Shown one piece after another: positions 9,867-61,082 of a stretch of DNA of 64,000 bases. The translations under genes were made by a program, and so were the position numbers. This DNA comes from Eledone cirrhosa (taxonomy: Eukaryota). Every line of letters begins with the position of its first letter. The stretch's first letter is position 1. The stretch is from positions 14,632,001 to 14,696,000 of the forward strand of contig OZ024758.1 in the NCBI GenBank assembly GCA_964016885.1, written 5' to 3'. Below the pieces are notes generated by a model. It had not been told where the DNA came from. It was given only the letters and a program-made list of their open reading frames with translations, and made no database searches.

Positions 9867-11138
9867 GACAGGGGCCCCAATCTTATGAAAAACAATGTGA
9901 AATAAAGTAATTTCCTCAAGAATACAACAGGATGCCTGGTCAAGGAATCAAAGCCATGATCTTATGACTGTGAGTCTAGCATTCTAACCACTTGGCAACA
10001 TGCCTTCAATTTACTAGAAATAACAGCCAATCTCCCTCAAATTAATCCCTATTGTCTTGAAAAATAAGTAGAGCATGTTTATGGTCAAATCATGTCTCCT
10101 GTCACCTGAAAAACAGTGATACTTCTATCAGTTGTTGCAATCAACAGATTCACTTCCCTGACATTTGTACATTATTCTATGTACTATACATGCACCTTTG
10201 ATGAGTTGTAGTGCACCTGAGCACTGTACACAATAATTTCAAATCCCGCCGAGGTTAACTTTGCCCTTCATCCTTACGGGGTCGATAAAATAAAGTACCA
10301 GTAATGTACTGGGTAATTGCTGGTCTTGTACCAAAAGTAGAAACAATTATATTATAAAGAGCATTACACTTTAAATCATAATAGAGTAATAAGATGAACT
10401 AACACATTTATTTGTGGGTAAATATATCTGTCTGTGTCTATACATACATATATATATATATAATTGTTTCTACTTTTGGCACAAGGCCAGCAATTATCCC
10501 AGTGCATTACTGGTACTTTATTTTATCGACCCTGTAAGGCAAAGTTAACCTCAGCGGTATTTGAACTCAGATCATATATATATAATAGAGACAATTGGGA
10601 CAAGCAAACCCAATTGTCTATAGTTAGTATTCTTTTCACCTTAGCGAATCTGGTCCCTTACGATTTGAACACATATAAGTATATATCTGTGTTCGTTTTT
10701 CTTTTATATTCTGGAGGCACATGGCTTAGTGGTTAGAGCATTAGCCTTGCAATCGAAAGGTTGTGAGTTCAATTCTCAGACTGGGTGATGTGTTGTTTCC
10801 TTGAGCAAGACACTTTATTTCACATTGCTCCAGTTTACTCAGCTGTAGAAATGAGATGATAAGGACTGGGGTCCATATCATTCCACTGCAAAGAGGTCGT
10901 GGAGGTGCCACAGCAAAAAAGCACCCAGCACTCACTGTAAATGAGGTTGGTGTTAGGAAGGGCATCCAGCTGTAGAAATCAAGCCAGAATCAGTTCCCGT
11001 CCCACATTTGCAAGCAGGGAAAAGCGGACGTAAAAATGCTGATGATGATGATTCTATTATAATATACGGCTCGGAAATATCTCTTTCTTAGAGCTATTTT
11101 ATTGTAAGAGACTATTTTGAGTTCCTACCTCACTCAAT

Positions 11139-11149
11139 ATATACTTTTG

Positions 11150-11180
<31 letters not shown>

Positions 11181-11205
11181 ATATATATATATATATATAC
11201 CTTTG

Positions 11206-11236
<31 letters not shown>

Positions 11237-11358
11237 TGCACATACATATGCATATATATATATAATCTAAATGATATGTGTTGTGTGTGTGTGAATATAT
11301 ATGTGTGTGTATATATGCATATATGTATGGTATATATATACATATATGTATGTGTATA

Positions 11359-11437
<79 letters not shown>

Positions 11438-11457
11438 GAATTAAATAATGTTTTATG

Positions 11458-11491
<34 letters not shown>

Positions 11492-11502
11492 CATAATACA
11501 TA

Positions 11503-11540
<38 letters not shown>

Positions 11541-11551
11541 CATAATACATA

Positions 11552-11591
<40 letters not shown>

Positions 11592-11610
11592 CATATATAT
11601 ACATATATAC

Positions 11611-11643
<33 letters not shown>

Positions 11644-11672
11644 CATATATATACATATATACATATATATAC

Positions 11673-11703
<31 letters not shown>

Positions 11704-12056
11704 CATATATATATATATACATATATATACATACATATATATATATACATATACATATATATATATACATATACATATATATACATATACATATATATAT
11801 ACATATATATACATATACATATATATATACATATATATATATACATATACATATATATACATATACATATATATATACATATACATATATATATACATAT
11901 ACATATATATACATATACATATATATATACATATACATATATATATACATATACATATACATATATATATATACATATATATATATACATATATACATAC
12001 ACATATACATATATACATATACATATACATATATACATATACATATACATATATAC

Positions 12057-12092
<36 letters not shown>
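11139..12092. repeat. ~950-bp compound (TA)n/(TATAC)n microsatellite
   Basis: Direct inspection; source of the YI-repeat ORFs. Others: (GT)n 19636-19748, (CT)n 21512-21595, (CA/TA) 22817-23048, GATA-type 61336-61363 and 61630-61760. Confidence 0.97.
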
Positions 12093-12093
<1 letters not shown>

Positions 12094-12690
12094 GTATATA
12101 TTCATATGCACAACACATGTCATATGCTGTAATCATCAGTTATTACCATCAGTTACATATCGTAATGAGCAAAGTGGTCTGAAAAATAATGTGAAGATGG
12201 AAGAATTATTAAGAGAAAACATGTGAGGTTGTTTGAGATGTGCTTCTGGTGCAATATAATTTGCATGAAATGTGTATCATTTGAATTTCTGCTGACAAAT
12301 TCAGCAAGTCAGGAAACAGATATGCTGCAATTGCAGTGGCAGTGAGAATATATACCCTCCAGCAATATTACAAATGTAAAAAGAGGAGGAAAAATATAAA
12401 TATAAATATAAATATAAAGACAGTTAAAAATACAATGAAATACTATTAGAAAAAATGCTTCACATTTGGGGGAGGGGGGTGAAAAAAATTTCAGTATCGA
12501 CCATAATAATATGCCATGTATGTTTGTGTGTGTTATACACGTATATAATAATACAACAAGGACGAATGGTTACTCCTTCATTATGTTTATTGGTTGGTGA
12601 CGTGCGTTTCGCTATTGATCAGCTCAAGGTTCGATCTGTATCAGTCTAGCCTGACTCTGTAATCAATGACTCATCAGACCTCTTTGGTAG

Positions 12691-29088: not shown

Positions 29089-29319
29089 ACCGTTTGCAGG
29101 TGTATCTCTACAAAGACTGCAAAGATGCTCTCAAAGACGGAAATGCAAAAAACACATTTCCACTTGAGGGTTTCTATGGCATTGAATCTGGGTTCACTTA
29201 TGAAAAGGAGGACAATGTCATGGCCATTATTTGCCAGAAGTCTGTGATTCTTATGTCTTTTGAATCAAGAGAGCTTATGATACATTTTGAATTACGTATT
29301 CGACGATGTCTTGGAGAAG
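29089..29319 (+). CDS. DOK7: DOK7 orthologue, PH-domain exon (equivalent to human exon 3)
   Basis: Acceptor ttttcag|AC, donor GAAG|gtttgt; 231 nt, phase 1-1. Reads (D)RLQVYLYKDCKDALKDGNAKNTFPLEGFYGIESGFTYEKEDNVMAIICQKSVILMSFESRELMIHFELRIRRCLGE, which aligns by eye with recalled human DOK7 DCLLMLVYKD...LEDICGLEPGLPYE...LAIVCLSQAIMLGFDSHEAMCAWDARIRYALGE. Confidence 0.92.
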
Positions 29320-29715
29320 GTTTGTATTAGCTGCCTAATTTTTTAACATTTTCATGACTACATTTCTAATGAAATAACACTATGGTTTTTAAATAATTTT
29401 TATGATAATGAAGAATTTTCAGCAATTTAATAAAATAATTAACATTTTTCACATTTGATATCGCTAGTGCACGCATGATATTTGTTTATGTTCTGCATAA
29501 ACAAGTCACACAGCTTAGCTGTTGATTAGGTATGTAAAGATCTGTAACTTACTTAGAAATACAAATGAGAGTTGGCATCAGTAAGGACATCTGGCCATAG
29601 AATTCTGCCGCCAAATGTTTCCAGTCCATGCCAGTATGAGAAAAAGATAAAAAATAACAAAGTAAATCTCCTAAGGATGTATATGTATACTGATGTGTTG
29701 TGTATCTCTTTACAG

Positions 29716-29925
29716 AACACCAGTATCGAGTGAGGATCTTAAAGGTACCCCAGGGTAGTAAACTACCTTTAGAAAATGTCCGAATGCACATCCACCATGA
29801 CAAATTTTGCCTGGCAGCTTATATTCCACCTAAAATGTTACAATCTTGGAGGATACATGATTTACGCAGATTTGGTGTTGTTGAAGGGAAATTTGTCTTT
29901 GAAGGTGGCTCACGCTGTAGAAAAG
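29716..29925 (+). CDS. DOK7: DOK7 orthologue, IRS-type PTB-domain exon
   Basis: tttacag|AA ... AAAG|gtaag; 210 nt, phase 1-1. EHQYRVRILKVPQGSKLPLENVRMHIHHDKFCLAAYIPPKMLQSWRIHDLRRFGVVEGKFVFEGGSRCRK matches the Dok-7 PTB signature IPP..W...DLRRYG....F.FEGG.RC. Confidence 0.93.
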
Positions 29926-30778
29926 GTAAGAAGTCTTTTTAATATTTCTCTTCTTTCAGCATTAAAAAAAAATTTTAATTAATTTTTTTTTTTCACAGAA
30001 TAATGAGGAGAACTCAATGCAAGGAAGCTGTTAAAATAGCAAAATGCTGTCAATGACAGCGTCAGGTAAAATTTACCTCAAAGGACTGAAATTAGCAGCT
30101 AGAAGTGTGTTGGCCCATAAAAGTGATAGAAAGAAAATAGACGATACAAGATCACACAAATATCTTTTAACTTCTTCAGCTCTCAGACCGAATGTGGTTT
30201 CGCATGATTTAACTTTTTTAAAAACAACGTTGTCTCTGATTGAGACGAAGCAAGAGTGTATTTGAATACATATAAAAATGAGAAAACTCATTAACTTTTG
30301 TTGCTTTACTCTCTAATCAGGGGATTAAGAGCAGGACCGCTAAGATATGAGGGAGATTATCCTCATATCAAAGTCCTGTCCTAAATATTTGCAATAAAAG
30401 ATTAAACTGCAATAAGAAAAGTTCTATACTGATAACCTAGTTTGCATCATAACTTCTGCCATCACCGCCACATCTGTTTTACCATCCTTGAGACTTGCAT
30501 CAGTTCAGTTAGGCAGTTTTTCTCCAAAATAGAAGCGAGTTTGGCTTTTACGCCTACCTCCCTTCTTCTGATTACTGAGTGCATTACTGCACCAGCTTTT
30601 GCAATTCTTGCACTTAATTCATACTCCTGCCTTCCATCACTCGTGAACACGGCTCTGAGATATTTGAACTTCTCTACCTGCTTCAGTGGAATTCCATTCA
30701 CATGTAGCATGCACTGCGTAAGCTTCCTTGAGAGGACAAGTCATTAAAATGTTTTCTAAATATATTTTATTCAAACAG

Positions 30779-30895
30779 GTTCAGGTGTCCACATTATTGC
30801 TACAGAACAAGGAGAAGAGGTGGCTGAAATATTCCAAGCTGCTAGTGAAGGAAAACCTACAGCAGGTGAGCGAAAATGGCCAGTGATGCTAAGAA
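30779..30895 (+). CDS. DOK7: DOK7 orthologue, PTB C-terminal exon (alternative donor after 30865)
   Basis: tcaaacag|GT; GSGVHIIATEQGEEVAEIFQAASEGKPTAGERKWPVMLR; donors g|gtgagc (30866) and a|gtaagt (30896), both phase 1. Resembles DOK7 AGVFFLSSAEGEQISFLFD. Too short for the ORF track. Confidence 0.88.
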
Positions 30896-31157
30896 GTAAG
30901 TCAAGTGTGTTATTTTCAACTAGAAACATATTCTGGTTCTAACCCTTGGGCTTACGCTGCACTTGCTTCTTAGAATGGAATCATCATTGCATTTTTTTTT
31001 TTTTTGTTCCTTTTGTATTTCACATTTTATTTACATCAACTTCTTCTTCATACTTTCATATGCCACAGATCTTAACCCTTTTTATGCCATATTTCTAATG
31101 AAAGACACTGCCTAGATTTTTAGCAAATAATTTTGAAAATAATCCAAAATTTGGAGA

Positions 31158-31320
31158 GATTTGATATAGTAATATAAGGGCGGTGGATTTGATATAGTAA
31201 TATAAGGGCGGTGGATTTGATATAATAATATAAGGGCGGTGGATTTGATATAGTAATATAAGGGCGGTGGATTTGATATAATAATATAAGGGCGGTGGAT
31301 TTGATATAATAATATAAGGG
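31158..31320. repeat. 28-bp tandem repeat (~5.5 copies) at a MITE-B/SINE junction
   Basis: Unit ggatttgatatagtaatataagggcggt. Confidence 0.9.
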
Positions 31321-33849
31321 ATGTGCATTGGCAGAATCAGTAGAGCGTCGGAGAACATGCTTAGCGGCATAGAGTTACGACCGTTTACGTTCTGGGTTCA
31401 AATCCTGCTGAGGTTAACTTTGCCTTTCATCTTTACAGGGATCGATAAAATAAAGTACCAGTAATGAACTGGGGTTGATTTAATTGACTTTCCCCTCCCC
31501 CAAAATTGGTAGCCTTGTGTCTATAGTAGAAATCATTATTTATTTGATTTTTGAAGGGTGGTGGATTGGCAGAATCAGTAGAGCGTCGGAGAACATGCTT
31601 AGTGGCATAGAATTACTACCCTTTACGTTCTGAGTTTAAATCCTGCCAGGGTTAGCTTTACCTTTTCCCTTTCCTCCCAAAATTCAAAATTGTTGGCCTT
31701 ATGCCATTATTTATTTGTTGTTTGGAACATAAGATAACAAATGTTCTTACTTAAAATGATGCAGAACTGAAGTTTGGTATGAAAAAGGGTTAATTTGTAG
31801 ACACCATTTGTGTTACCTTTGGCCAAATTAAGATGTCTGTCATTTGAAATGAATGTTGCACAGAAATAGTAACACAATAAATTGATTGCTTTGCTTTATT
31901 TTGACTTTTTGCATGTTTCTCTCTCTCTCTTTTTAATTAACACCTGCAGATCTCATTCCTGGGTTTTTGATTTCTTTTTCTTATTATTAATACACTGATC
32001 TGGCTAATTTACAACTTAACTTTTCATCAGTTTTTTTTCTTTGTCATTTTTTTTGGAGTGGAAGTTACTTTACTCTAAACTCTTAACAATCCTTTAATGA
32101 TTTAGCTGAAAATATCTATAAATAGGTTAGTTAATTCAAAAGTTTATAGTATCTCTACTAGTGGATAGATTGTGAAAATTTACAATATTAAAGTCTAATC
32201 CTTTAGCATTTACATTACTCTATATTTACTATTGTATTTTCATGGTAAAGGCTTTACCTCACATAATATTGATCTATGAGATTTTGATATTTATTTTGAG
32301 AACAATACCTTAACATTAGTATGAGCAACCAGTTACAGCCAGTTTGAACAGAAAGAGGTGAGAAAATTCTGGCCGGATATGGCCAGTTTAAATGCTAAAG
32401 GGCTAAAGTCAGTTTCAAGCCCAGGTGTGGTGGATTGACAAAATCAGTAGAGTGTCGGAGAACATGTTTAGCGGCATAGGGTTATGACCCTTTATGTTCT
32501 GAGTTCAAATCCCACCAAAATTAACTTGGCCTTTCATCTTTACGGGGTCAATAAAATAAAGCACTAGTAATGCACTGGGATCGATTTAATCGACTTTCCC
32601 CTCTCCCCAAATTGCTGGCCTTGTACCTAAATGAGAAACCATGGATTGGCAGTGTCGGTAGAAGGTCGGACGCCATGCTTTGACGCATAGAGTTATGGCC
32701 TTTGCCTTTCATCCTTACGGATAAATAAAGTACCAGTAATGCACTGGGTAATTGCTGGCCTTGTGCCAAAAGTAGAAACAATTATTATTAAGAGGGTCAG
32801 ACACCGTGCTTTGTAGCATAGAGTTATGCTGCTTTACGGTCCGAGTTCAAATCCTGCCGAGGTTAACTTTGCCCTTCATCCTTACGGGGTTGATAAAATA
32901 AAGTACCAGTAATGTACTGAGATAATTGCTGGCCTTGTGCCAAAAGTAGAAACCCTTATTATTATTGTTATTATTATCATTATTATTAAGCTGGTGTTTG
33001 GAGAATAATTGTTGGCTCAGTTTCTTTCTTTGTTATCAATCTGTTCCGTTTCTTACAACAACCAAAAATAAAAAGATAAATTAATAGCTGCTACATAGTA
33101 ATACAACCACTTTTTCTTTTCTCTTTCTTCCCTTCACCATAAACTTGTTGAAATTAAAATCAGTTGTACTAGAATTTCGTACAAGTCTTTGTAACACAGC
33201 AAAAGCAAATGATAATCTCTTATCTGTCGAGAAAATGGCCATCTTTCTCTAATTAAAAAGCAGACACCGTTTCATACTAGATTACTTTTATCAACTTGAA
33301 GCTAAATAATCTTTTAACATGCTTAGATTGTTAATTCAATCTTTGTTGCTAATCATACTACAGCTAATTAGTGCTAGCACTGAGAAATCATCAGGGAATG
33401 CGTGTGTGAAGGCACGTAGCCTAGTGATAAGGGTGTTGGACTTACGATCATAAAGTCGTGGGTTCAATTCCTGGGCTGGGTTGTGTGTTGTGTTCTTGAG
33501 CAAAAACATTTCATTTCACGTTGTTCCAGTATACTCTGCTTCAACCATAGAATGACTTCCTTATTCATAGAAGCACATCATCTTATGTTGTTATTTTTTT
33601 TCTTTTCTATTTTTTTTTAAATTTATTAATTAAATAAATTTAGAAGCTTTCGCTTATGGCTTCAGCTTGAAATTTTCAGAAAATCTTAGGAAATATTAAT
33701 AGAATGTTTACAAATATTTTTAGTGAATTCATGGAATTTGAGATTTTAAGTTATGTGAAATTATTTTCATATAATTTCTCCTTAAATTTCTAATATTTAC
33801 TAGAAGATACTTTTAAAAAAATTGTTTATTTTTTAAAAATTTTTTGTAG

Positions 33850-34484
33850 GGTCCCAGATAAATGAGTTTTTAGACAGTCCTTTCAAATCTCAATACAGCG
33901 ACACACCAAGCTCAGCCAGCTCAATTGAAATGGATTCTCGATCAAATGACTCTGAATGGCGAAAACGGCATTCAATAAGTGCAGCAGACTATGGCTGGGC
34001 CCAGGGATATGGAGAAAAAAATAAACTAATTAGTATTGAGAACTTGGAAAATGAGGCCCGCGATCACTTACTCGCTATTTATGATATCCCACCTCGGCGT
34101 ATACGGAAAGTGGAATTTTTAAGTCCAAATCGTAATTCTCTCCAGCCTTCTCCTAACAGAAATACATTAATCCCTCACTTAACAGAAGGTTCCACAAATG
34201 CGAAATTGAACTGTGTGGACAACAGCAAAAATTATTATTCAAATACCAGTCGAAATGGGAACCAGTACCACTCATTTGAGTCTTTCATGCCATCCCCTAC
34301 CAATGGGAACACCCACTATGAAAATGAAATCACTATGTCTGCTCAGTTTTCTGGTGGGAGTGTTATTGATACAGAAATTGACCGAGCAACCACCCAGACA
34401 CGGCGCCAGGATGCCCAGAATAAATTACATAAAGAAGAGCAAAATCTTCAGCGAGAAATTACTTTGCTAGATGAAATGCTGCAG
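33850..34484 (+). CDS. DOK7: DOK7 orthologue, first tail exon (YDIP motif, probable short coiled coil at end)
   Basis: tttttgtag|GG, open and in frame with ORF 33930; donor CAG|gtaagt; 635 nt, phase 1-0. Confidence 0.88.
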
Positions 34485-35223
34485 GTAAGTAGAAACTTTT
34501 CTCATAAAATGCTTGATAATCCTTTTGATTTCAAACTGCCTGAAACTTTACCTGGTTCTATGATGGAAAACTTTATTTTAACCCTTTAGCATTTACATTA
34601 CTCTATATTTACTGTTGTATTTTCACAGTAAAGGCTTTATCTCATATAATTACTTCACATAATATCGAATCTATGAGATTTTGATATTATTTATTTTGAG
34701 AACAATACCTTAACATCAGTATGAGCATCTGGTTATGGCCGGTTTGAAGAGAAAGAGGTGAGAGAATTCTGGCCGGATATGGCCAGTTTAAATAGGGTTA
34801 AAGTGTTTCTATTCATCTAAAAACCCTTTACCACATTCTGAGGCTAGACATGTCACATGATGTTTTTCTCATATGTTCCATTCCTGGCATGGATGTATAC
34901 CAGGTTCATTTAACACAGCAACAACACTACCACTTTACAGTATAGGCTAAGTGAATTTTATTGTGGCACCAGCAACACCTAGATTATATGCACCTATACT
35001 CTAGATTATATACACTACACACACATCATTATCATCATCACCGTTTAACGTCCATTTCCCACACTTGCATGGGTTAGACAAGTTGTCCTGTTGTGGGCAA
35101 TGCTAGGTGAGGTGACCATGTCTTGTTCATACAGAACTGATTTGGGCTTGGTTTCTACAGCTGCCTGCCCTTCCTAATGCCAACCTCATTTACAGGGAGT
35201 ACTGGGTGCTTTTTGTCAAGACA

Positions 35224-35266
<43 letters not shown>

Positions 35267-35493
35267 TCATCATCGTTTAACGTCCATCTTCCATGCTAGC
35301 ATGGGTTATATATATATATATAATGATTTATTTAAGAAAATTACTTCCCAGCCAAATTACATATTTCTTTTTAGGGGATTTCCTGACAAAGATTTCAGTT
35401 TTATTATTTTTAGATGTATTGGAATATATGTTCGATGTATAATAGAATTAGTTATTTTGTATATTAAAGTCATATATTATTCATTTCATTTAG

Positions 35494-38092
35494 GTTTGGC
35501 AGTTAGAAGAGACCAAACCAAACGGGGGCCAGACACAACCAAAATATGTTGTAAGTATGCAGGGACAGCCAGCATTACCTAACAAAAAGTCCTACCAAAA
35601 TACAAATGCTTGGGTTGATGCTAACTTTACTGATAATGAAGTGCAGTTCCGCAGTAACAGCTGCTCATTAAATAACACCACTCCTCCTAATCGAACTGGT
35701 TCTGGCTATTGGGACAGTGGCATGCTGAGCCCAAATCTTTTGTCTAAACTTAACAAGATTCCACAAAATTCCCAGTTAGCAGCACCTCTACCTTATGTAA
35801 ACCTGGAAAAATATGATGCCGGTGATGATCGCCGACATTTATCTGTATCATCAAGTGAAAGCTCTGATATTTTACTTCCGACAGACACCAGATCCCAAAA
35901 TTATGATAACTTAAATCTGGAGCACAATCAACCACCTTTACCTGCTAAATCACAACAATTAATTGATTATCATAATAATGTTTATTTCTCTCAACAAGAT
36001 TCAAAAACTGAAAACATCTCCCAGAACATAAATTCTCCTAAAACAGAAGAATTTTCTAGAGAATATTCACCACCTCCAAAATTACCTCCCAAGGGTCCAT
36101 TATTACAAAATCGAAATCGTCAACGCCAGTTACTACCTTCAGCAAACAATCCAGTCTCACCTGTTCCACATATATCTCGAAGACACACCATGTCTCCAGA
36201 TTCTTCCAGTAGTTCTGATTTAAGTCCATATCATATGCCACAAATTGGGAATCCATCGTCTGTCCGTTTAAAAGACCAAGATAATAACTGTGATGATTCG
36301 TATTTCATGATGAGTGGATTTGCTAAGGAAGAGAAGTGTGAGGAGTCGGACCTCCTGAAATCTCCAGTCCTACCTCATGGTAACTCAAACATGATACGTG
36401 CTTACATGGATATGACTGGTAAGTTTGAGATTCCAACAGGCTTCCCTCCACCTCCTTGTCCATCCACTCACAACTCTCCTGGTCGGACTTCCATCTACGA
36501 TCCCAATATAACTCAGTGCTGCGCCCCTCCGCCTCCATTAAGCACAATGCCAGCTGAAATGATGAGATCCCAACCAATAGCAACAGGGAATCCAGATGAA
36601 AACTATATGGAGATGGGAGGCAGCCCTAAAAAATCAGTTGCAGATAACTTGCAAGCCTCAAATCTAAGTATATGTTCAAATCCTAGTTCTCCAACATATT
36701 TTTCCAAAGATATCGCCGCTTCAGTGAGTTCAGATTTCTCATCTTCTTCATCTTCATCTACAAATTGTAACCCAGTACCATTTCCTAATTTGAAAAACTT
36801 TCAGATGTTAAATAATGAAAAATCAAATGAGGTAACTGGAAGCAATCAATCTATAAATAAAGGATCTAGCAAAGATAAACCACAGGAAAACAATATGAAA
36901 GCCCCAGGGTTTTTCTCTCGTTTAATCCGACGTAATTCCAAGGACCAAACCAAGAACTCTTCTCTAAGCCAAGAAAATTTGGCTTCATCAAACTCACCTG
37001 TTGACAGAACTAGTTCAGTGGGACCTCCTTGTAATCCTGAAACTGTAGAGAATGTAGAATCTTTACCACCAGACCAAGCTCAGTTATCAGGGGAACGGCA
37101 GCGATCTTCTAGTTTCCCCAGTGAAAATTGCTACCAAGATATGGTTCCAGAACTACCCAAGTGTAATCCTTTGGTTGGCCAGAAGCAGACTGCTGGTTAC
37201 CCACCTCTACCTTTCAACTGTCACCGGGGTAGTACCTCCTCCTGCAATCCCAATTCTAATAACACAACTCCAACAAAATGTCATAATTGCCAGCAATCAT
37301 CTCTGAACCAGATTAAATGTAATTATAAAATACAATCTTGTGCTTCTCATTCCACCTGCCAGAGTCCTTCCAAAGAGTCACACTTAGATACAACTAACCA
37401 AAATCTGAAACAGATTTCATCAAAGTCTTTTGAATCTAATGGTCCTGAACATTACCCCAACAGTGATGTATCTGATTCCTATATATTCATGGGACCACTT
37501 TTCGGTAAAGAAGAAGAAATGTCTAATAATGAAATCAGTAACAATTCCCCAACAAATAATGATTCTTGCACTAAAAGCAATCTATTAACAGAAGAAATAC
37601 TGCCTCCTGAACAGTTCCAGACCAATAATTCTTCAAAAACAGATGATGAGAAATTATTAGAACTGTATCATTTGGGCAAGTCTCAGTTAAAGGGGGAAGA
37701 CAGTTTCGAATCAGCCCCGACTCCAAATACATCAGAACTAAAAGATAAACTTAGTTTACCATTGAACCCAGCTATAACTCCAGATGAACAAGCTGCTGCT
37801 ATAGCCAGACATGTAGCTGGATTACCTCCATTTATACCCCCTAAAACCAAATCTCATCCGTGTAGTTTATCCCCTGTGTTTGAATCAAATCCTTGTTTGA
37901 CACCAGAGCCAACAGGAATGAAAATCAAATATGAACCGGAGTTCCAGGAGATTCCCGAACCTTTCCAACTGAAGGATTTATCAGATTATGTTCAACAAAA
38001 GCAACAGGAGCAATCGTCTTTACGTATTGCTCCTGCGTCAGACCCACTGGTTGAAGAAACTGTATGGATCCCTAGGACAACTGATGCAACAG
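35494..38092 (+). CDS. DOK7: DOK7 orthologue, 2.6-kb Ser/Pro/Asn-rich tail exon with multiple tyrosine motifs
   Basis: ttcatttag|GTT phase 0, in frame with the 877-aa ORF at 35557; donor ACAG|gtaagc phase 1; 2599 nt stop-free, non-repetitive. Confidence 0.9.
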
Positions 38093-38535
38093 GTAAGCTT
38101 GCAACATTTCAGTTTTTTTTTTTTTTTATGAAAATCTTCATTATTAATATTTTACCATATTTTAAGGCAGCAAATTGGCAGAGTCGTTAGAATGTTGGAA
38201 AAATGCTTTGTGGTATTTATTCTGGCTCTCTGCTCTTTGAATTCAACTTTGCTTTTCGTCCGTTCAAGGTCGATAAAAAAGTACCAGTCTAGTACTGGGG
38301 TTGATTCTTCCTCTATATCTCTTTCTCACTTCTTTTCTCTCACACTCTCTATCCTTCTCTGGAAGAAATCTGCTGTGTTCAGACCTAGAGAGGAGATGGG
38401 CTCCACTAGGCTTAAAAAATGCCCTAAGAGAACGTTGCATGTCAATGTTTTATAACAACTGTGTTTGTTCAATTTTTACTTTACAGAAGTTGAAAGGTAA
38501 AAATTATATATATTTCAGACTGAAAATTTTTGAAT

Positions 38536-38873
38536 GGAGGCACATGGCTTAGTGGTTATAGCATTGGCCTTCCAATCGAAAGGTTGCGAGTTCAATTCTC
38601 AGACCGGGTGATGTGTTGTTTCCTTGAGCAAGACACTTTATTTCACATTGCTCCAGTTTACTCAGCTGTAGAAATGAGATGATAGGGACTGGGGTCCCTA
38701 TCATTCCACTGCAAAGTGGTCGTGGAGGTGCCACGACAAAAAAGCACCCAACACTCACTGTAAATGAGGTTGGTGTTAGGAAGGGCATCCAGCTGTAGAA
38801 ATCAAGCCAGAATCAGTTCCCGTCCCACCCTTGCAAGCAGGGAAAAGCGGACGTAAAATGATGATGATGATGA
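38536..38873 (+). mobile_element. tRNA-derived SINE family 2 (~340 bp, (GAT)n tail) in the last DOK7 intron
   Basis: A box tggcttagtgg, B box gagttcaattc, ccttgagcaagacac domain, tail cccttgcaagcagggaaaagcggacgtaaaatgatgatg. Near-identical copies at 10713-11052 (+), 12790-13054 (+, 5' truncated), 13333-13670 (-), 15784-16122 (-); older relatives at 20838-21070, 35030-35226, 40435-40650 (-). Confidence 0.92.
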
Positions 38874-39237
38874 TAACACTAGGGTCTATTTCTTTACATG
38901 AATTGTTTGCACTTTTAGTCATCTAACCCTTTAGCATTTAAACTGGCTATTTCTGGCTAGAATTCTCTCACCTCTTTCTGTTCAAACCAGCTGTAACTGG
39001 CCACTCATCTTATGTTAAAGTATTGTTCTCAAAATCTCATAAATTCAATATTATGTGAGATAATTATGTGAGGTAAAGCCTTTACCATGAAAATACAATG
39101 GTAAATATAGAGTAATGTAAATGCTAAAGGGTTAAATTGTTTATAAGATTGTTGATAATATAGCTTTATAAAATTAATGTATGTAGCGACTGTATTAACG
39201 ATATAGTAACTGTGGTTTTTCAATATTTACTTTACAG

Positions 39238-39974
39238 AAGATGAAAGTTTCCAGGTATTTGAAGGAAAACAACTGAAATCAAATGATGCTAGTCCCCAAG
39301 ATGAGGATTCGTCAGTGACACCTGTTACGGGAATTGTTGAGTCTGTGTCAACTGAGGATGCTGTGCGCAGCAGTCCTGCATCAACAATTTTAAGACCTCG
39401 GTCTGGTAAAGACTACCAACTTGTTGAACGAAAGAAATCCATTGATGGCAGCAGTGCTGATACCAGCAACCCCCAAACACCACAGTCTGTTTCTGCAAGT
39501 CTTGTATTTACATTTGATAATTTACCTCAAGTAGTTTCAAACAATATTAACAATGCCTCTCCTACATCCCAAAATGAAAATCCAGCTTATGTAAATTTAG
39601 GTCGCGACCCAGATACAAATGATCCCATATTTTCTTATGTGAATATCGACATGACACCTCCATGCTCTCCTTTTACCTCTGTAGATCATCCAGAGCCCCT
39701 TTTGAACTATGCTGAGATTGACCTTTCTTCTAATTATACGAACTGTTCGAACCAAATGAAAGCAACAAATCCAAGAGATTCTATCATAGACTATGCTACA
39801 ATTGATATGGTTGCCACTGTAGCAGCTCAAAAGGCAGGGGAAGAACATGCTCAATCACGTGGGGAATGTTTCCAAGCATCTAACCGGAAATATTCTTCAA
39901 CAAATCTCAGTAAAGAGAGTAAATCAATTACAGGACATCTAAAAGAAAAAAAATCTTCCAGTATTTCAGAATGA
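39238..39974 (+). CDS. DOK7: DOK7 orthologue, terminal coding exon
   Basis: tttacag|AA phase 1 (NAGNAG, alternative start 39241), in frame with ORF 39315, ends TGA at 39972-39974; contains YVNL, YVNI, LNYAEIDL, IDYATIDM. Confidence 0.88.
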
Positions 39975-43844: not shown

Positions 43845-46012
43845 GTGAATACTATTAGAAAAATCAGTTATATTTTGAAATTTTTCAAAAATCTTAATCC
43901 ATTCTTATAAAATCAATCGTTTATGTGCCTGGTACATTTATTTTTAAACTATTGGCACAAGAAGTTAAGCTTTGAAATGTTTAATCATGTCAAAAGGTTT
44001 CCTTCAGTCATGGTTGACTACGAGTTGCATCCATGATGATTTTTTTTTTTTTTTTTAACCCATTAGCATTTACATTACTCTATATTTACTATTATATTTT
44101 CGCAGTTAAAGGCTTTATCTCACATAATATTGAATCTACGAGATTTTGATATTATTCATTTTGAGAACAATACCTTAACATCAGTATCAGTGGCCAGTTA
44201 CGGCCGGTTTGAACAGAAAGAGATGAGAGAATTATGACCGGTTTAAATGCGAAAGGGTTAAAGATATCATTTAGGATCAATGCTACTTATGGCTGAAAAG
44301 ACCAATAATGCTACAAGAGTGACAATCTTTGTTGCAGTGTTTTGCTGTACTGTCTAGTCATGTAATACTGGAAAATATTTACCTTTTTTCCCCAATTCTT
44401 TTAACCCTTTAGTATTTACATTACTCTATATTTACTATTATATTTTCATGGTAAAGGCTTTATCTTACATAATTATCTCACATAATATTGAATCTATGAG
44501 AGTTTGATATTATTTATTTTGAAAACAATACCTTAACATCAGTATGGGTAGGTGGCCAGAATTCTGGTGGGATACAGTCGGTTTAAATGCTAAAGGGTTA
44601 AATATTTGTTGGCATTGGTGAATAGAAAGAAATAATTTTAAAGCTGGGGAAAATTATGACATAAGCATTTTACTCTATATTTACTATTGTATTTTCATGG
44701 TAAATTATCATGTAATTATCTCACATAATAGCGAATCTATGAGATTTTAATATTTATTTTGAGAACAATACCTTAACATCAGTATGAGCGGCTGATTACA
44801 GCTAGTTTGAACAAAAAGAGGTGAAAGAATTCTGGCTGGATACAGCCAGTTTAAATGCTAAAGGGTTAAACTACTGCCAAAACACATCAAACTAAAATTT
44901 ATCTCTGTGTTTTTAAAACAACCAAATATATTTTTTATGGTAATGTATTAGAAATCCTCAGAAGCTTAACATTTGAGGTAAAGCTCATACTTTAAATATT
45001 TTTGTGCATAAGCTCTGTCATACATATGTAGTCTGTTGACCCTTCACGCTATATAAATGGGGTTGGACCTTTTTTTTTATCGCAAAGAAAAAGAAAATTT
45101 GAATATCTATAATTTATTTTGTTAGCTTTAATAGGGATCATTTTTCCACTAATATCATCTCTTCACAGAATAATAACTAAAATTTATTAATTAATGTGAC
45201 ATTTTTAGATATACAGGGAGATGAATATTCTTGTAAATATTCTTAACCTTTTAGCATTTACATTACTATTATATTTTTATGGTAAAGGCTTTATCTCACA
45301 TAATATCAAATCTATGAGATTTTGATGTTATTTTGAGAACAATATCTTAACGTCAGTATGAGTGACCAGTCATGGCCGGTTTGAAAAGAAAGTGGTGAGA
45401 GAATTCTGGCCGGATATGGCCAGTTTAAATGCTAATGGGTTAATATAGATTTAATGTCATTGAAATATGATAATATTGCTATAAACACTTTATCTCACAT
45501 AATATCAAATCTACGAGATTTTGATATCATTTATTTTGAGAATAATACCTTAACATCAGTATGAGCAGTCGGTTTGAACAGAAAGAGGTGAGAAAATTCT
45601 GATCAAATATAGCCGGTTTAAATGCTAAAGGGTTAAAGCTATTATCATGTCACAGCAACCTCAGAGGAAGAACAATGAATGAATGTATTTCACTGTAGTT
45701 TGTCAGGACTTGTTAAGGCATAAATGACTATTCCCAGCCAGACTAAATATATATTCATTATACATATTATATATGGTTTTTATATAGTTTCTTTATTTTG
45801 AATGATGCTGTGTTAGGGCTACATATATATTTGATCTAGCTGTAATCATGTCACAGACCCCTCAACATCAAGGTTAAGAGCAGTGGATGAATGCATTTCA
45901 GTATCAGTACATCTCATCAACATACGCTTACTTATACCCACATGTTGAGGTATTAAAAAGACATGACTCACAACGTGACTAAATATATGCTTATTATACA
46001 TAAACATATATA

Positions 46013-46187
46013 CAGACCTGTCAACTCTCCCCGGCCGACGGAGGAGATCTACCAACTTTGGGGTGGGTGAGAGATGTCTTCTCTTGTGAAAATGGGTATA
46101 GCTTTCATTATGTAAAATCTCCCCATTTTGGGGCATTTTTTTTTTTGTGGTACTCCCCATTTGGGTTTTTAGAGGTTGGCAGGTCTG
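46013..46187. mobile_element. TIR MITE family C; second copy at 46445-46640
   Basis: cagacctgtcaac ... gttggcaggtctg TIRs; the two copies are clearly homologous internally. No clean TSD. Confidence 0.8.
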
Positions 46188-46655
46188 ATATATATGGGTT
46201 CTTATACATCTTTATTATAAACTACACTGTGTTAGTGCTATCACTAATGATATATATATTATCTAACAGCTTCATGAAAATATTTTGATACACATCTTCC
46301 AACACCATTTTTAATAATCATTAATGTTATCTTAATTTATTGCTATTTTCTCTATTTCATTATTTATATTTAAAAAAAAAATACTTTGCCTCTGCTTCGA
46401 GTTTGAAGTGCCATTGTAAACACCAAATTGCAATGATACTATATTAGACCTGTCAACTCTCCCCATCCGACAGGGAAGATCTCCCACCCACTCTGGGGTG
46501 GGTGAGAGATGTCTTCTCTTGTGAACATAGGTACAGCTTTCATTATGTAAAATCTCCCCATTTTGCTTCATTTCTCCCCGTTTTGGGGCACTTTTTGTCA
46601 TGGTACTCCCAGTTTGGGTTTTTAGAGTTTGGCAGGTCTGCTATTTTACAAAATA

Positions 46656-47056
46656 CAGGTTGAAGCTTTTATCTGAAAACTTCCTAAATTTGAAAGTTTT
46701 TTTCTAGTGCTGACGTGACTCACCACAAACAGTAATTATGTTTGTGTCCATTTGTTATAAGTACAGTAAATATAAAACATTATTTTAATGTGAAATCTGA
46801 ATTTCAACACAGAAAAATCCCTGAGTGTAAACTAGCATGAATATCTGTATGTGTTTTAAATTAATATAAATTTATATAAAACATATCTTTAGAGGACAGT
46901 GTCGAGAATCACTGCTTTAAGGTCTGTGTACAAGCTGTAAATGGATCTCGTGTTGAGGCTTGGGTTCCACTCCCAAGCTGTCCCATTGTATACAATTATT
47001 CCTAAATCTGAAACACTTCCAGTCCCAAATATTTCAGATAAAGGATTCTCAACCTG
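46656..47056. mobile_element. Tigger/pogo-like MITE
   Basis: TA|caggttga...ttatctgaaa ... tttcagataa...tcaacctg|TA; TA duplication and imperfect ~25-bp TIR. Confidence 0.75.
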
Positions 47057-47769
47057 TACCAATTATTAAACTCCCCGTTTGATTAACTTCAACTCTGTAA
47101 CATTTCACATCAAAGCCTGGCTTTATCTTCATTAACCTGATTTTGGTCACGATAATAACTCCCGCATACACACACACACACACACACACGTTTTTGTCAA
47201 CGAAAAACAAAAATACGTGCAATGTATTTTTAACTCTTAAAGTGCTTTTCTTCCCTTCGACTGGCAAAGAGAGCTAATTCATTCAAGGGAGGTAACTTTT
47301 GCTTTCTCCGTGTAACTTGTCTGTCTATTGTAAATACGTATCTAAACAAACTTCTCCGTCCAGTTTTGCTGCGGGTGTCAATAAAGATGGGCCTGCTATC
47401 ATACTTCAAAACACTTTACTGTCATCAAACTTTCGCCTTTGGTGCTTCACTCGTATGGATTCCATTTTAAAAAACAAAAATCTATTGTTGCTATATTAAT
47501 TCTATTCCTTTTTTCATATTTGCCCTTTACTTAAAATTGTTATTTGCTCATGACTCCATTTGTTATGCTTGCATTTGTTTCATGAATGTCAACAAAAGAA
47601 GGGCGGCTTTCTGTATGAAATCTCAATAATCACAGTTGTTTTGGGGTTTTTTTCTTATTATTTGAATATTCAATCTAACAGGTAGGGAGAAATATGTATG
47701 CAGTAGATGTACAGGGAAATTAAACAGTAGAAGTCGCATTGATAGACACATTTTTCAAATGCAGGAAGG

Positions 47770-48362
47770 CGCTATAGAAGTGGTGGATAGATTAGCATGG
47801 GAGGAGGGTGTTCCGAGGCCATAGTATCTAGAATAAGGACGGGTTGGAAGAAGTTTAGGGAGCTGCTTCCTCTGTTGACGAAGAAGGGTTTCTCCTTGCG
47901 TACGAAAGGCCGGTTGTATGATGCCTGTGTGAGGAGCATGATGCTGCATGGTAGTGAGACATGGGCAACAACTGCAGAGGATATGCAACGGCTGGAGAGA
48001 AATGAGGCAAACATGCTCCATTGGATGTGAGTGAACGACCCAGCATAAATGTGTTGAGAGAGAAACTGTGTCTGAGAGGGATAGAATGTAGGAAGAGGAG
48101 ACTGAGGTGGTATGGACATGTGATGCGCATGGAGGATGACCGATGGGTGAAGAAGTGCCAGGAAATGCCAGTTGAAGGAAGACGTAGAGGTAGACCACGA
48201 AAAACATGGGCGGAGGTGGTGAGAACAGACCTCAGATCATTGAAGCTCACGGTGGAGATGACGAAGGACCGTGACGAGTGGAGAGATGCTGTGCTGAATA
48301 AGACCCGTCCCACCCTTGCAAGCAGGGAAAAGCGGACGTAAAATGATGATGATGATGATGAA
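47770..48362 (+). mobile_element. 5'-truncated RTE-clade LINE (ORF C-terminus plus (GAT)n tail), frameshifted near 48025
   Basis: GGGCSEAIVSRIRTGWKKFRELLPLL...KGRLYDACVRSMMLHGSETW...RRLRWYGHVMRM...GRRRGRPRKTW...DRDEWR: typical RTE post-RT motifs. Confidence 0.93.
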
Positions 48363-49044
48363 TGCAGTGAATTAGCAGAGTATTTGAAATTAGAGATTAA
48401 ATGCCTTAGTATATGTCCTGACTCTGAGTTCAAATCCTGCTGGAGTCAACTCTACATTTGACTCTTTCTGAGGAAAGTGGCAGAGTTGGCAGATTTAGTG
48501 ATAAATGCCTCAGTGTTTGTTCTGGCTCTTTGCACACTGAGTTCAAATCCCGCCAGAGTCAAGTTCACATTTCACCCTTTCAGAGGCAGTGGATTGACAT
48601 AATTGTTAAAGAGTTAGACGAGATGCTTTGCACTATCTGATCCAGTTGTGTGTGTTCTGAGTTGAAATCCCACCTTCTTCTGTCAGGAGTTACAATTGAC
48701 AGATAGTATTATTAGTGGATTGAGTTCAAATCCCGCCGAGGTTAACTTTGCCTTTCATCCTTACGGGGGTTGATAAAATAAAGTACCAGTAATACACTAG
48801 GATAATTGCTGGCCTTGTGCCAAAAGTAGAAACAAGTATTATTAGTGGAAACACTGTTCCTTTCATTCAGTTTAAGTATCAGTCTCTTTTACTCTTTTAA
48901 ATATTCCAATCTTCTAGCAGCCTTCCTCCTTCACCTAAAGAAAATATGTTTTATGGCAAATGGTATATTACTATAACAATAACTATCATATTTCTTTCTA
49001 CATCACAGTTTCACTTCATCAATATTATTATTATTATTATTAAT

Positions 49045-52200: not shown

Positions 52201-52717
52201 ATTACTGTATTAACTTTTATAATTTTTTCACTTCAAAACAATGAATTTCTCCACTTAAAATCTCTTTCTAAATTTCAATCAATAGTGTTCAATAGAACTG
52301 ATCCATTAAGGTGATCAAATTTTTACAGTCATCAATAAACTCCAAGATATTATCAATATTATATTATTTCAATGTGAATCTGTTTTCCTAATATTAAACA
52401 AATAATAATAGTATTTTGAACATTTAGAAATAAATCTAAATCCCCTACAGTGTATTAAGAGCTGGGATCTATATGTAAAATATCTCAGATTTCGTCAGTA
52501 CAAAGTAATTAATGAGTTGAAACAGAGTTGTTCAATGCTGCCAACAGTTGCCCTTCATTGAAGAAAAATGGGGAAGAAAAGAAATGTAAATCTAATTCTA
52601 TAATAGTCCCTGCTTGTTATTTCTGCAGCAGAATATAAAACATCATAAACATATTTCCTCCAACTATCCCTGTTGTCATTGCTTTGAGTTCTTTAAGACC
52701 ACTTTAGGATCTGGTTG

Positions 52718-53608
52718 GTCTCTCTATCTACCATTAAGGCATTCTTGGTCTCTATTTACCGTTAGGACCTTCCTGATCTCTCTATCTACTACTAGAACAT
52801 TCATGGTCTCTCTATCTACCACTAGGACCTTCCTGATCTCTCTCTCTACCACTAGGACCTTCCTGATCTCTCTATCTACCACTAGGGCATTCTTGCTCTC
52901 TCTATCTACCACTAGGACATTCTTGGTCTCTCTATCTACCACTAGTACTAGGGCATTCTTGGCCTCTCTCTATCTACCACTAGGACATTCTTGCTCTCTC
53001 TATCTACCACTAGGACATTCTTGGTCTCTCTATCTACCACTAGTACTAGGGCATTCTTGGCCTCTCTCTATCTACCACTAGGACATTCTTGCTCTCTCTA
53101 TCTACCACTAGGACATTCTTGCTCTCTCTATCTACCACTAGGACATTCTTGCTCTCTCTATCTACCACTAGGACATTCTTGCTCTCTCTATCTACCACTA
53201 GGACATTCTTGCTCTCTCTATCTACCACTAGGACATTCTTGCTCTCTCTATCTACCACTAGGACATTCTTGCTCTCTCTATCTACCACTAGGACATTCTT
53301 GCTCTCTCTATCTACCACTAGGACATTCTTGGTCTCTCTATCTACTACTAGGGCTTCTTGGCCTCTCTATCTACCACTAGGGCATTCTTGGCCTCTCTAT
53401 CTACTACTAGGGCATTCTTGGTTTCTCTATCTACCACTAGGGCCTTCTAGGTCTCTCTATCTACCACTAGGGCATTCTTGGTCTCTCTATCAACCACTAG
53501 GGCATTCTTGGTCTCTCTATCAACCACTAGGGCCTTCTAGGTCTCTCTATCAACCACTAGGGCCTTCTAGGTCTCTCTATCTACCATTAGGGCATTCTTG
53601 GTTTCTCT
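52718..53608. repeat. ~30-bp minisatellite, ~29 copies
   Basis: Unit tctctatctaccactaggacattcttgctc; homogeneous centre, divergent edges. Confidence 0.95.
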
Positions 53609-53679
53609 TTCCAGGGATCATATCCTCCAATAAGATTTTAGAAAGACCATAAGTTGAGCTTATAAATCTGTAAATCTTG

Positions 53680-57730: not shown

Positions 57731-58091
57731 TAGGCCCTATACCATGCTTTATACCTGTCATGTCATTTTAGAGACAATGTTTTATAACCAGGAACTCATT
57801 TTGGTGCCAACCCTTTTCATTGCTTCTTATGACATGCAAGGATATTGTGTACTTATTTTAAATCATGAAAGGTTGAAGACAACAACCTCTCTAGTGCTCG
57901 TTCCATCATAAAAAGCATCCACTTTACTTTGGTGAACTAAGTGGTTGGCATTAGGAAGTGTATCCAGTCATGGAAACCTTGCCAAAAATAGAAGATATGA
58001 ATACGCCAAGGTTCTTAAAACATGACAACCAGTACCAGCTTGGAAAAAAAGACATAAAATGATGATGATGGTGATACACACAGAAAAGGAT

Positions 58092-61082
58092 ACTTTACAG
58101 AGTGTATGTGGTGCGTTTCTTGTGGCACCAACAATATCACTTTACAGAGTGTATGTGGTGCGTTTCTTGTGGCACCAACTATATCACTTTACAGTGTGTA
58201 CTGGGTGCCTTTCTTGTGGCACCAACAATATCACTTTACAGAGTGTACTGGGTGCCTTTCTTGTGGCACCAACAATATCACTTTACAGAGTGTACTGGGT
58301 GCCTTTCTTGTGGCACCAACAATATCACTTTACAGAGTGTACTGGGTGTGTTTCTTGTGGCACCAACAATATCACTTTACAGAGTGTACTGGGTGCCTTT
58401 CTTGTGGCACCAACAATATCACTTTACAGAGTGTACTGGGTGCCTTTCTTGTGGCACCAACAATATCACTTTACAGAGTGTACTGGGTGCCTTTCTTGTG
58501 GCACCAACAATATCACTTTACAGAGTGTACTGGGTGTGTTTCTTGTAGTACCAACAATATCACTTTACAGAGTGTACTGGGTGCCTTTCTTGTGGCACCA
58601 ACAATATCACTTTACAGAGTGTACTGGGTGTGTTTCTTGTGGCACCAACAATATCACTTTACAGAGTGTACTGGGTGCCTTTCTTGTGGCACCAACAATA
58701 TCACTTTACAGAGTGTACTGGGTGTGTTTCTTGTAGTACCAACAATATCACTTTACAGAGTGTACTGGGTGCCTTTCTTGTGGCACCAACAATATCACTT
58801 TACAGAGTGTACTGGGTGCCTTTCTTGTGGCACCAACAATATCACTTTACAGAGTGTACTGGGTGCCTTTCTTGTAGTACCAACAATATCACTTTACAGA
58901 GTGTACTGGGTGCCTTTCTTGTGGCACCAACAATATCACTTTACAGAGTGTACTGGGTGTGTTTCTTGTAGTACCAACAATATCACTTTACAGAGTGTAC
59001 TGGGTGCCTTTCTTGTGGCACCAACAATATCACTTTACAGTGTGTACTGGGTGCCTTTCTTGTGGCACCAACAATATCACTTTACAGAGTGTACTGGGTG
59101 TGTTTCTTGTAGTACCAACAATATCACTTTACAGAGTGTACTGGGTGCCTTTCTTGTGGCACCAACAATATCACTTTACAGAGTGTACTGGGTGTGTTTC
59201 TTGTAGTACCAACAATATCACTTTACAGAGTGTACTGGGTGCCTTTCTTGTGGCACCAACAATATCACTTTACAGAGTGTACTGGGTGCCTTTCTTGTGT
59301 CACCAACAATATCACTTTACAGAGTGTACTGGGTGTGTTTCTTGTAGTACCAACAATATCACTTTACAGAGTGTACTGGGTGCCTTTCTTGTGGCACCAA
59401 CAATATCACTTTAACGAGTGTACTGGGTGCCTTTCTTGTGGTACCAACAATATCACTTTACAGAGTGTACTGGGTGCCTTTCTTGTGGCACCAACAATAT
59501 CACTTTACAGAGTGTACTGGGTGCCTTTCTTGTGGCACCAACAATATCACTTTAACGAGTGTACTGGGTGCCTTTCTTGTGGCACCAACAATATCACTTT
59601 ACAGAGTGTACTGGGTGCCTTTCTTGTGGCACCAACAATATCACTTTACAGAGTGTACTGGGTGCCTTTCTTGTGGCACCAACAATATCACTTTAACGAG
59701 TGTACTGGGTGTGTTTCTTGTGGCACCAACAATATCACTTTACAGAGTGTACTGGGTGCTTTCTTGTGGCACCAACTATATCACTTTAACGAGTGTACTG
59801 GGTGCTTTCTTGTGGCACCAACAATATCACTTTACAGAGTGTACTGGGTGCCTTTCTTGTGGCACCAACAATATCACTTTACAGAGTGTACTGGGTGCCT
59901 TTCTTGTGGCACCAACAATATCACTTTAACGAGTGTACTGGGTGTGTTTCTTGTGGCACCAACAATATCACTTTACAGAGTGTACTGGGTGTGTTTCTTG
60001 TGGCACCAACAATATCACTTTACAGAGTGTACTGGGTGCCTTTCTTGTGGCACCAACAATATCACTTTAACGAGTGTACTGGGTGCTTTCTTGTGGCACC
60101 AACAATATCACTTTACAGAGTGTACTGGGTGCCTTTCTTGTGGCACCAACAATATCACTTTAACGAGTGTACTGGGTGCTTTCTTGTGGCACCAACAATA
60201 TCACTTTAACGAGTGTACTGGGTGCTTTCTTGTAGTACCAACAATATCACTTTACAGAGTGTACTGGGTGCCTTTCTTGTGGCACCAACAATATCACTTT
60301 AACGAGTGTACTGGGTGTGTTTCTTGTGGCACCAACAATATCACTTTACAGAGTGTACTGGGTGCCTTTCTTGTGGCACCAACAATATCACTTTACAGAG
60401 TGTACTGGGTGTGTTTCTTGTGGCACCAACAATATCACTTTACAGAGTGTACTGGGTGTGTTTCTTGTAGTACCAACAATATCACTTTACAGAGTGTACT
60501 GGGTGCTTTCTTGTGGCACCAACAATATCACTTTACAGAGTGTACTGGGTGCCTTTCTTGTGGCACCAACTATATCACTTTACAGAGTGTACTGGGTGTG
60601 TTTCTTGTGGCACCAACTATATCACTTTACAGAGTGTACTGGGTGCCTTTCTTGTGGCACCAACTATATCACTTTACAGAGTGTACTGGGTGCCTTTCTT
60701 GTGGCACCAACAATATCACTTTACAGAGTGTACTGGGTGTGTTTCTTGTAGTACCAACAATATCACTTTACAGAGTGTACTGGGTGCCGTTCTTGTGGCA
60801 CCAACAATATCACTTTACAGAGTGTACTGGGTGCCTTTCTTGTGGTACCAACAATATCACTTTACAGAGTGTACTGGGTGCCTTTCTTGTGGCACCAACA
60901 ATATCACTTTACAGTGTGTACTGGGTACCTTTCTTGTGGCACCAACAATATCACTTTACAGAGTGTACTGGGTGCCTTTCTTGTGGCACCAACAATATCA
61001 CTTTACAGTGTGTACTGGGTACCTTTCTTGTGGCACCAACAATATCACTTTACAGAGTGTACTGTGTGCATTTTATCATGGT
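58092..61082. repeat. 47-bp minisatellite, ~63 copies
   Basis: Unit tttacagagtgtactgggtgcctttcttgtggcaccaacaatatcac, with interspersed variants (gtgtgtttc, gtagtacc, tttaacgag). Confidence 0.97.

Follow-up and report, generated by a model that had tools for sequence, protein, structure and literature searches.

DOK7 is currently viewed as a dedicated activator of the receptor kinase MuSK, with a tail in which two tyrosines recruit Crk. A 64,000-nucleotide (nt) stretch of the Eledone cirrhosa genome (contig OZ024758.1, positions 14,632,001 to 14,696,000, hereafter the window, whose own numbering is used below) carries most of a DOK7 gene with a predicted tail of ~1,330 amino acids (aa) as against ~300 in the 504-aa vertebrate form, raising the question of what such a tail is for and whether it is peculiar to octopods. 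The reading favored here, at a probability of about 70%, is that octopod DOK7 is a receptor-kinase docking platform, the PH-PTB region of which would bind a phosphorylated juxtamembrane tyrosine of MuSK while its phosphorylated tail would recruit Crk, Grb2, PI3K p85 and SHP2, this layout being ancestral and trimmed in tetrapods. At the level of sequence, this reading is founded on orthology, on conservation of the tail motifs, on the presence of a MuSK gene in the genome and on the same layout across bilaterians.

On sequence grounds the gene is the octopod orthologue of DOK7 and not of IRS. The Octopus sinensis orthologue matched mouse Dok-7 (PDB 3ML4) with an E of 1.9e-43 across 205 residues, the next match being DOK5 at 1e-4, with IRS-1 absent among the nine PDB matches obtained (E<=10). 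In a tree of 31 PH-PTB rows (IQ-TREE), 27 DOK7-type rows including the window gene and eight vertebrates were separated from four octopod paralogues by a 100/100 split, the outgroup being these four paralogues from the same genome only, with no DOK1-6 of other species, on long branches and with a bootstrap that was not fully settled. The same genome encodes a separate IRS, an FRS2-like protein and two further PH-PTB genes. The DOK7-type PH-PTB proposed in the initial annotation is thus borne out by the PDB ranking, the tree and the separate IRS, FRS2 and DOK genes, with no grouping with IRS/chico in either the tree or the PDB search. Pfam run exon by exon gave no match above cut-off, the IRS family reaching E 6.5e-4 on the 210-nt exon. 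The arginines through which PTB domains bind phosphotyrosine are present, RRFG and GGSRC aligning with mouse RRYG and GGTRC and the strict pattern being found in 88 of the 120 relatives listed. The PH-PTB coding exons measure 57/46/231/210/117 nt, beside 54/46/231/201/120 nt in the human gene. The third of them ends at c.334, with intron 3 of human DOK7 placed at c.331 in one report (PMC6207248).

The six exons within the window (Table 1) were confirmed in position with AG/GT ends throughout, and together give 4529 nt in one frame with compatible phases and a lone stop at the end, as originally annotated. The first two coding exons (57 + 46 nt) were sought in the window without success and lie ~9 kb upstream of it, such that the predicted protein reaches 1543 aa, about threefold the length of the familiar human form. 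The nearest proteins are those of O. sinensis (XP_029644002.1, 1551 aa; 83-99% identity per exon), O. bimaculoides, O. vulgaris and Argonauta, the nearest octopod proteins being annotated as "uncharacterized"; since some database records already name invertebrate DOK7, the gene itself is not new. Both donor forms of the exon closing the PTB domain (ends 30895 and 30865) occur as O. sinensis isoforms X1 and X2.

A protein of 1.5 kaa could arise from fusion of gene models, with the tail exons belonging to another transcript or the motifs being inert, and there are mollusc models that span part of the tail only, together with an O. bimaculoides model (P0008) that starts past the PTB. This is very improbable, however, given compatible exon phases with no stop, a length that is alike in four octopods and equalled in most other molluscs, and motif tyrosines under strong selective retention (see below). 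In addition, Logan contigs from relatives, taken to be transcripts because they lack introns, join PH-PTB to tail: P0003 (1273 aa, 4057-nt contig) runs from the PH-PTB through the end of the large exon, P0010 and P0011 cover the last exon junction and the bivalve-like P0019 (1632 aa, 5808-nt contig) covers the whole protein. These contigs and the predicted exon joining suggest that in the window gene, too, PH-PTB and tail share one transcript, and they run counter to the concern that the tail exons might sit on a different one. As P0003 ends just past the large exon, transcripts lacking the last exon may also occur. A search of sequencing runs returned no RNA run among the holders listed for the gene, and every match in an ESM Atlas search was below 0.9, yielding leads only.

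The motifs noted in the initial annotation (five YxxM, YENE, two YVNL, YDNL, YVNI, YDIP, three PxxPxK and RQRSSSFP) are all present at the positions given, and are assigned here to p85, Grb2, Crk SH2/SH3, SHP2 and 14-3-3 by their consensus motifs. Relative to 5000 shuffled versions of the tail, YxxM (5 vs 0.77 expected, p=0.0006), YxN[LIV] (4 vs 0.51, p=0.002) and PxxPx[KR] (4 vs 1.0, p=0.02) were enriched; YxxP as a class was not (3 vs 3.6). Conservation was assessed in an alignment of the window protein, three cephalopods and 23 of the 28 listed non-cephalopod mollusc matches, in which mean tail identity was 0.245. The five matches set aside were the second of two Haliotis proteins, an unnamed Logan protein and the Candidula, Aplysia and Lymnaea models (881-965 aa, without YxxM). 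The 13 motif tyrosines were kept in a median of 18/23 molluscs as against 0/23 for 25 other tail tyrosines (p=1.3e-4), a value to be discounted given the relatedness of the species and the capacity of the aligner to pull like motifs together. The tyrosine motifs are therefore far better kept than the other tyrosines, rather than no more conserved than their surroundings. As candidate signaling sites, three YxxM, one YVNL, YVNI, YDIP, two PxLPPK-type sites and RSSSFP are conserved, while two of the five YxxM, three of the five YxN and PPLPAK are poorly or not conserved outside cephalopods. Rejected as conserved sites were YENE (0/23), the YVNL at 39588 (Y1416; 2/23), YDNL (Tyr in 7/23), YQDM (3/23), YIFM (4/23) and PPLPAK. 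The pairing of DOK7 with a multi-motif tail holds on both counts, but what is here called its best-conserved element, a C-terminal SHP2-type tyrosine pair, had been overlooked. The two sites, YAEIDL and YATIDM, are 28 residues apart and form with YVNI a C-terminal module, the tyrosines of which are kept in 17/23 (YVNI, Y1432), 18/23 (YAEI, Y1456) and 18/23 (YATI, Y1484) molluscs, five of the 23 models ending earlier.

Table 1. Coding exons and tail features of the DOK7 gene in the window; fractions refer to the 23 non-cephalopod molluscs, and binding classes are presumed from consensus motifs.
Feature	Position	Strand	Support or conservation
Coding exon 3, 231 nt, most of PH domain	29089..29319	+	Sole PDB match Dok-7 3ml4, E 3.7e-7; splice sites
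Exon, 210 nt, first part of IRS-type PTB, DLRRFG and GGSRC arginines	29716..29925	+	Dok-7 E 3.3e-11, next DOK5 E 0.098
Exon closing PTB domain, 117 nt	30779..30895	+	Alternative donor at 30865
First tail exon, 635 nt, YDIP and conserved helical-looking segment at end	33850..34484	+	
Large tail exon, 2599 nt	35494..38092	+	
Last coding exon, with stop codon	39238..39974	+	Junction to preceding exon in Logan proteins P0010/P0011
YDIP (Y298), Crk/Nck SH2-type site	34080..34091	+	Tyr and Pro 22/23
YVNL (Y533), Grb2 SH2-type site	35794..35805	+	Tyr 23/23, +3 residue 22/23; local identity 0.88
PPKLPPK, SH3-type ligand	36073..36093	+	PPxLPPK 23/23
YxxM triad YFMM 36301, YMDM 36403, YMEM 36604 (Y702/736/803), p85 SH2-type	36301..36615	+	Tyr and Met 23/23 each
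RQRSSSFP, Akt/14-3-3-type site	37096..37119	+	RS[SA]SFP 22/23; complete RxRSxSxP 18/23
YQDM 37132 and YIFM 37480, poorly conserved YxxM	37132..37491	+	Tyr plus Met 3/23 and 4/23
PPFIPPK, SH3-type ligand within conserved island	37825..37845	+	PPxxPPK 22/23
RPRSGKDY island	39393..39416	+	Tyr 18/23
C-terminal module YVNI 39636, YAEIDL 39708, YATIDM 39792, AT..A.K.G..HAQ.R; Grb2-type site and SHP2-type pair	39636..39869	+	

The long tail is not confined to octopods. A search limited by length (853-2715 aa) found 148 relatives, the best 120 of which were listed, in molluscs, the annelid Owenia, chelicerates, insects and fishes, and in a search without length bias 35 of the best 36 matches were at least 881 aa; further relatives occur in amphioxus (1350 aa), hemichordates and echinoderms. 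In hand-picked sets of 2-55 proteins, mean YxxM per tail exceeded the shuffled value in molluscs (4.4 vs 0.76; 25 proteins, Candidula, Aplysia and Lymnaea models excluded), amphioxus (14 vs 1.4), sharks and rays (2.4 vs 0.27) and ray-finned fish (3.3 vs 0.25), with means of 18 in Owenia, 2.5 in chelicerates, 1.5 in insects, 4.0 in ambulacrarians, 1.0 in reptiles and 0 in the amphibians, birds, marsupials and placentals sampled. A profile of the C-terminal module, built from 24 mollusc and annelid sequences only, matched 60/61 fish proteins among the relatives listed in the length-limited search and 120/134 vertebrate proteins chosen by tail similarity (partial bird models accounting for 12 of the 14 misses), as well as amphioxus (E 4e-9), Limulus and a scorpion, with 0/90 reversed controls scoring. 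YVNI, L[NH]Y[AM]E[IL], YAxID and AT..A.K.G..HAQ.R follow one another in the same order in octopus and shark, and in fish DOK7 a Crk pair (YQVP/YDTP) near 400/410 is followed by YxxM sites and then the module. A motif like that of the RPRSGK[DE]Y island was present in 12/18 insects and 3/3 amphioxus and in none of the vertebrates sampled. Of the two origins left open by the initial annotation, ancestral or lineage-specific, the occurrence of long DOK7 in molluscs, an annelid, arthropods, hemichordates, amphioxus and fishes favors the former and not the latter. The long motif-rich tail is thus likely to be the ancestral state rather than an octopus oddity, and would have been trimmed stepwise in tetrapods, with the YxxM cluster lost and the module confined to long isoforms in placentals.

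Several observations weigh against an ancestral signaling platform, in addition to the discount on the motif statistic given above. The middle tail is not alignable between phyla, such that turnover or parallel origin of single YxxM sites is possible, and 26 of the 27 arthropod-type proteins listed lack the C-terminal module. The module profile also weakly matches octopod FRS2 (E 3.6e-4), so that part of its signal is a generic SHP2-type pattern. Five mollusc models and P0003 end ahead of the module, and isoforms or split models therefore exist, while the gastropod models of Candidula, Aplysia and Lymnaea (P0031, P0033 and P0035) have no YxxM. Finally, all partner binding is predicted from motifs. 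The three gastropod models just named retain PH-PTB and C-terminal module, so that in heterobranchs either the exon is skipped or the models are at fault. The unaligned middle tails, the module mostly missing in arthropods and the similar tyrosine pair of FRS2, along with the ease with which short linear motifs arise, could be taken to mean that long motif tails were gained independently in several lineages by convergence in disordered sequence, the short vertebrate form being nearer the ancestor. Such convergence is improbable in view of the order, spacing and trailing AT..A.K.G..HAQ.R of the module that are common to octopus, amphioxus and sharks, the RPRSGKxY-type island found alike in molluscs, insects and amphioxus, and the long forms on every bilaterian branch sampled.

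As upstream kinase the initial annotation had suggested a MuSK/Ror-type or insulin-type receptor; MuSK emerges as a better candidate partner than Ror or the insulin receptor. The MuSK orthologue of this genome, a gene encoding Fz, kringle and kinase domains (L019; G000:C13:10762401-10772400, minus strand), matched MuSK with E 3e-49 as against 5e-27 for Trk and 3e-22 for ROR1. The octopod MuSK segment LDRLPQNQSYHRM aligned to human LDRLHPNPMYQRM, which includes the Tyr553 docking site, with LDRL..N..Y.RM in common; Tyr553 is given as the DOK7 docking tyrosine of MuSK in PMC7744297. At this site octopods have NQSY in place of human NPMY, a further point against the platform reading, and replacement of the Pro of NPxY may weaken or alter DOK7 binding. 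A Ror-type kinase exon (L027; G000:C306:68001-78000, plus strand; transmembrane and kinase), assigned by eye, has a juxtamembrane region without NxxY.

The same multi-effector dock might instead serve mainly an insulin-type or other NPxY receptor, DOK7 then working as a second IRS-like protein. This would be in keeping with the IRS-like YMxM cluster, with NQSY not being NPxY and with a statement in PMC12445529 that the MuSK/Dok-7 role is uninvestigated in non-vertebrate chordates. It appears unlikely, however, as the PH-PTB is of DOK7 type, the genome already has its own IRS and FRS2, octopod MuSK retains Leu-Asp-Arg-Leu, Asn(-3), Tyr and Arg-Met at the site, and the Ror-type juxtamembrane region has no NxxY. 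That MuSK is the kinase, that the tail is phosphorylated, and by which partners it is bound and in which tissue, we infer. On the platform reading MuSK autophosphorylation would be followed, by analogy to vertebrates, by docking of the DOK7 PH-PTB and dimerisation, and docking by phosphorylation of the tail, which would then recruit Crk (YDIP, PxLPPK), Grb2-Sos (YVNL, YVNI), p85 (the three YxxM) and SHP2 (YAEIDL/YATIDM), with the RSSSFP site as a possible point of serine feedback.

Set beside known systems, octopod DOK7 shares with the 504-aa vertebrate form (mouse, 3ML4) the orthologous PH-PTB over 205 residues, the matching third-exon boundary, a Crk-type Y[DQ]xP tail site and a genome with MuSK. 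It differs in its longer tail, with three YxxM, YxN, SH3 ligands and a C-terminal tyrosine pair added, and in a single YDxP where vertebrates have the pair Y396/Y406 (PMC7744297), the positions not being alignable. The database models of long vertebrate isoforms and of fish dok7b, which measure 585-1156 aa, have in common with it the C-terminal YVNI / Y-x-E-L / YAxID module, and those of fishes retain 2-5 YxxM; the long isoforms are nonetheless shorter and lack RPRSGKxY, with no YxxM in the amphibians, birds and mammals sampled and one in reptiles. A segment at 34422-34484, EEQNLQREITLLDEML, resembles vertebrate EALQLEKRLSLL, a coiled-coil/nuclear export segment that follows the PTB, but lies ~180 residues further downstream. 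The tails of IRS proteins carry YMxM clusters along with YxN sites and, at the C-terminus, SHP2-type sites, and octopod DOK7 resembles IRS1/2 and chico in its PH-PTB head and long tail of this kind, but its PH-PTB is not IRS-type and a separate IRS gene is present. FRS2 begins with a myristoylation-type signal and lacks a PH domain, and Gab has a PH domain and no PTB; octopod DOK7, by contrast, begins MADMNII with a PH domain and, unlike Gab/DOS, has a PTB. The octopod FRS2 pair YIQLDL/YAEIDF resembles YAEIDL/YATIDM of DOK7, and the 28-residue spacing of the latter recalls the SHP2-activating Y627/Y659 of Gab1 (PMC2747914), binding being predicted here. The FRS2-like gene (L008; G000:C10:22676591-22679806, minus strand) is a 471-aa frame with a MGCIYS start of myristoylation type, a PTB best matched by FRS3/FRS2 (E 5e-32) and YxN sites, though an upstream PH exon may exist; it is at odds with the conclusion of PMC7260276 that true FRS2 was lost in molluscs.

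In vertebrates the module was found in long bird, marsupial, camel and deer DOK7 isoforms. The camel and two deer isoforms (463-586 aa) retain it at E 3e-8 to 7e-8, with the context of the first module tyrosine degraded in placentals (HYLGLQL), and deer forms of ~500 aa stop before it, at GGLK-VKPPP. Long and short deer forms part exactly after GGLK, as would be expected from read-through of a splice donor. No placental DOK7 was among the best 120 of 481 matches in the tail-similarity search of vertebrates. A human transcript, NM_001301071.2, with exon 10 (of 10) and a codon 598 is described in PMC10256249, where a stop at codon 598 plus a missense change accompanied one fatal neonatal case, a single case without functional test and hence weak. 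NM_001301071 probably contains the module. A tentative extension, against which the odds currently lie, is that the 504-aa DOK7 of the textbooks is an isoform derived by clipping of the tail. The ancestral module (Grb2-type YVN[IV], SHP2-type YA[QL]ID and a conserved helix) would then be homologous between octopus and camel, would persist in the long isoforms of vertebrates, probably the human one among them, and would be what brings SHP2 to MuSK at the neuromuscular junction, a recruiter so far missing, the short form being an accelerator and the long form accelerator-plus-brake.

Elsewhere in the window no further protein gene was evident among frames of at least 100 aa; long tandem repeats, a TA-rich array and LINE-like reverse-transcriptase remnants occupy 3800-6500, 52600-53650, 58000-61300, 11130-12180 and 45846-48445.

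A literature search turned up no paper describing the tails of invertebrate DOK7 or the module of the long isoforms, subscription papers and supplements lying outside its scope and an earlier description being possible. According to PMC7744297 it is not understood how the signal is relayed beyond MuSK, and in the accessible text of PMC13599456 SHP2 acts as a brake on MuSK, with no recruiter named. Should DOK7 have been ancestrally a platform like IRS, FRS2 and Gab, and should its long isoforms retain an SHP2/Grb2-type module, particular tyrosines could be tested directly in myotubes of fish, chick and mammals; were the proposed brake true, it would have consequences for the interpretation of DOK7 variants and for gene therapy. 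The mollusc MuSK-DOK7 pair offers a way to ask what the module did before the vertebrate neuromuscular junction, and the main value of octopod DOK7 lies in what its tail may reveal about vertebrate DOK7.

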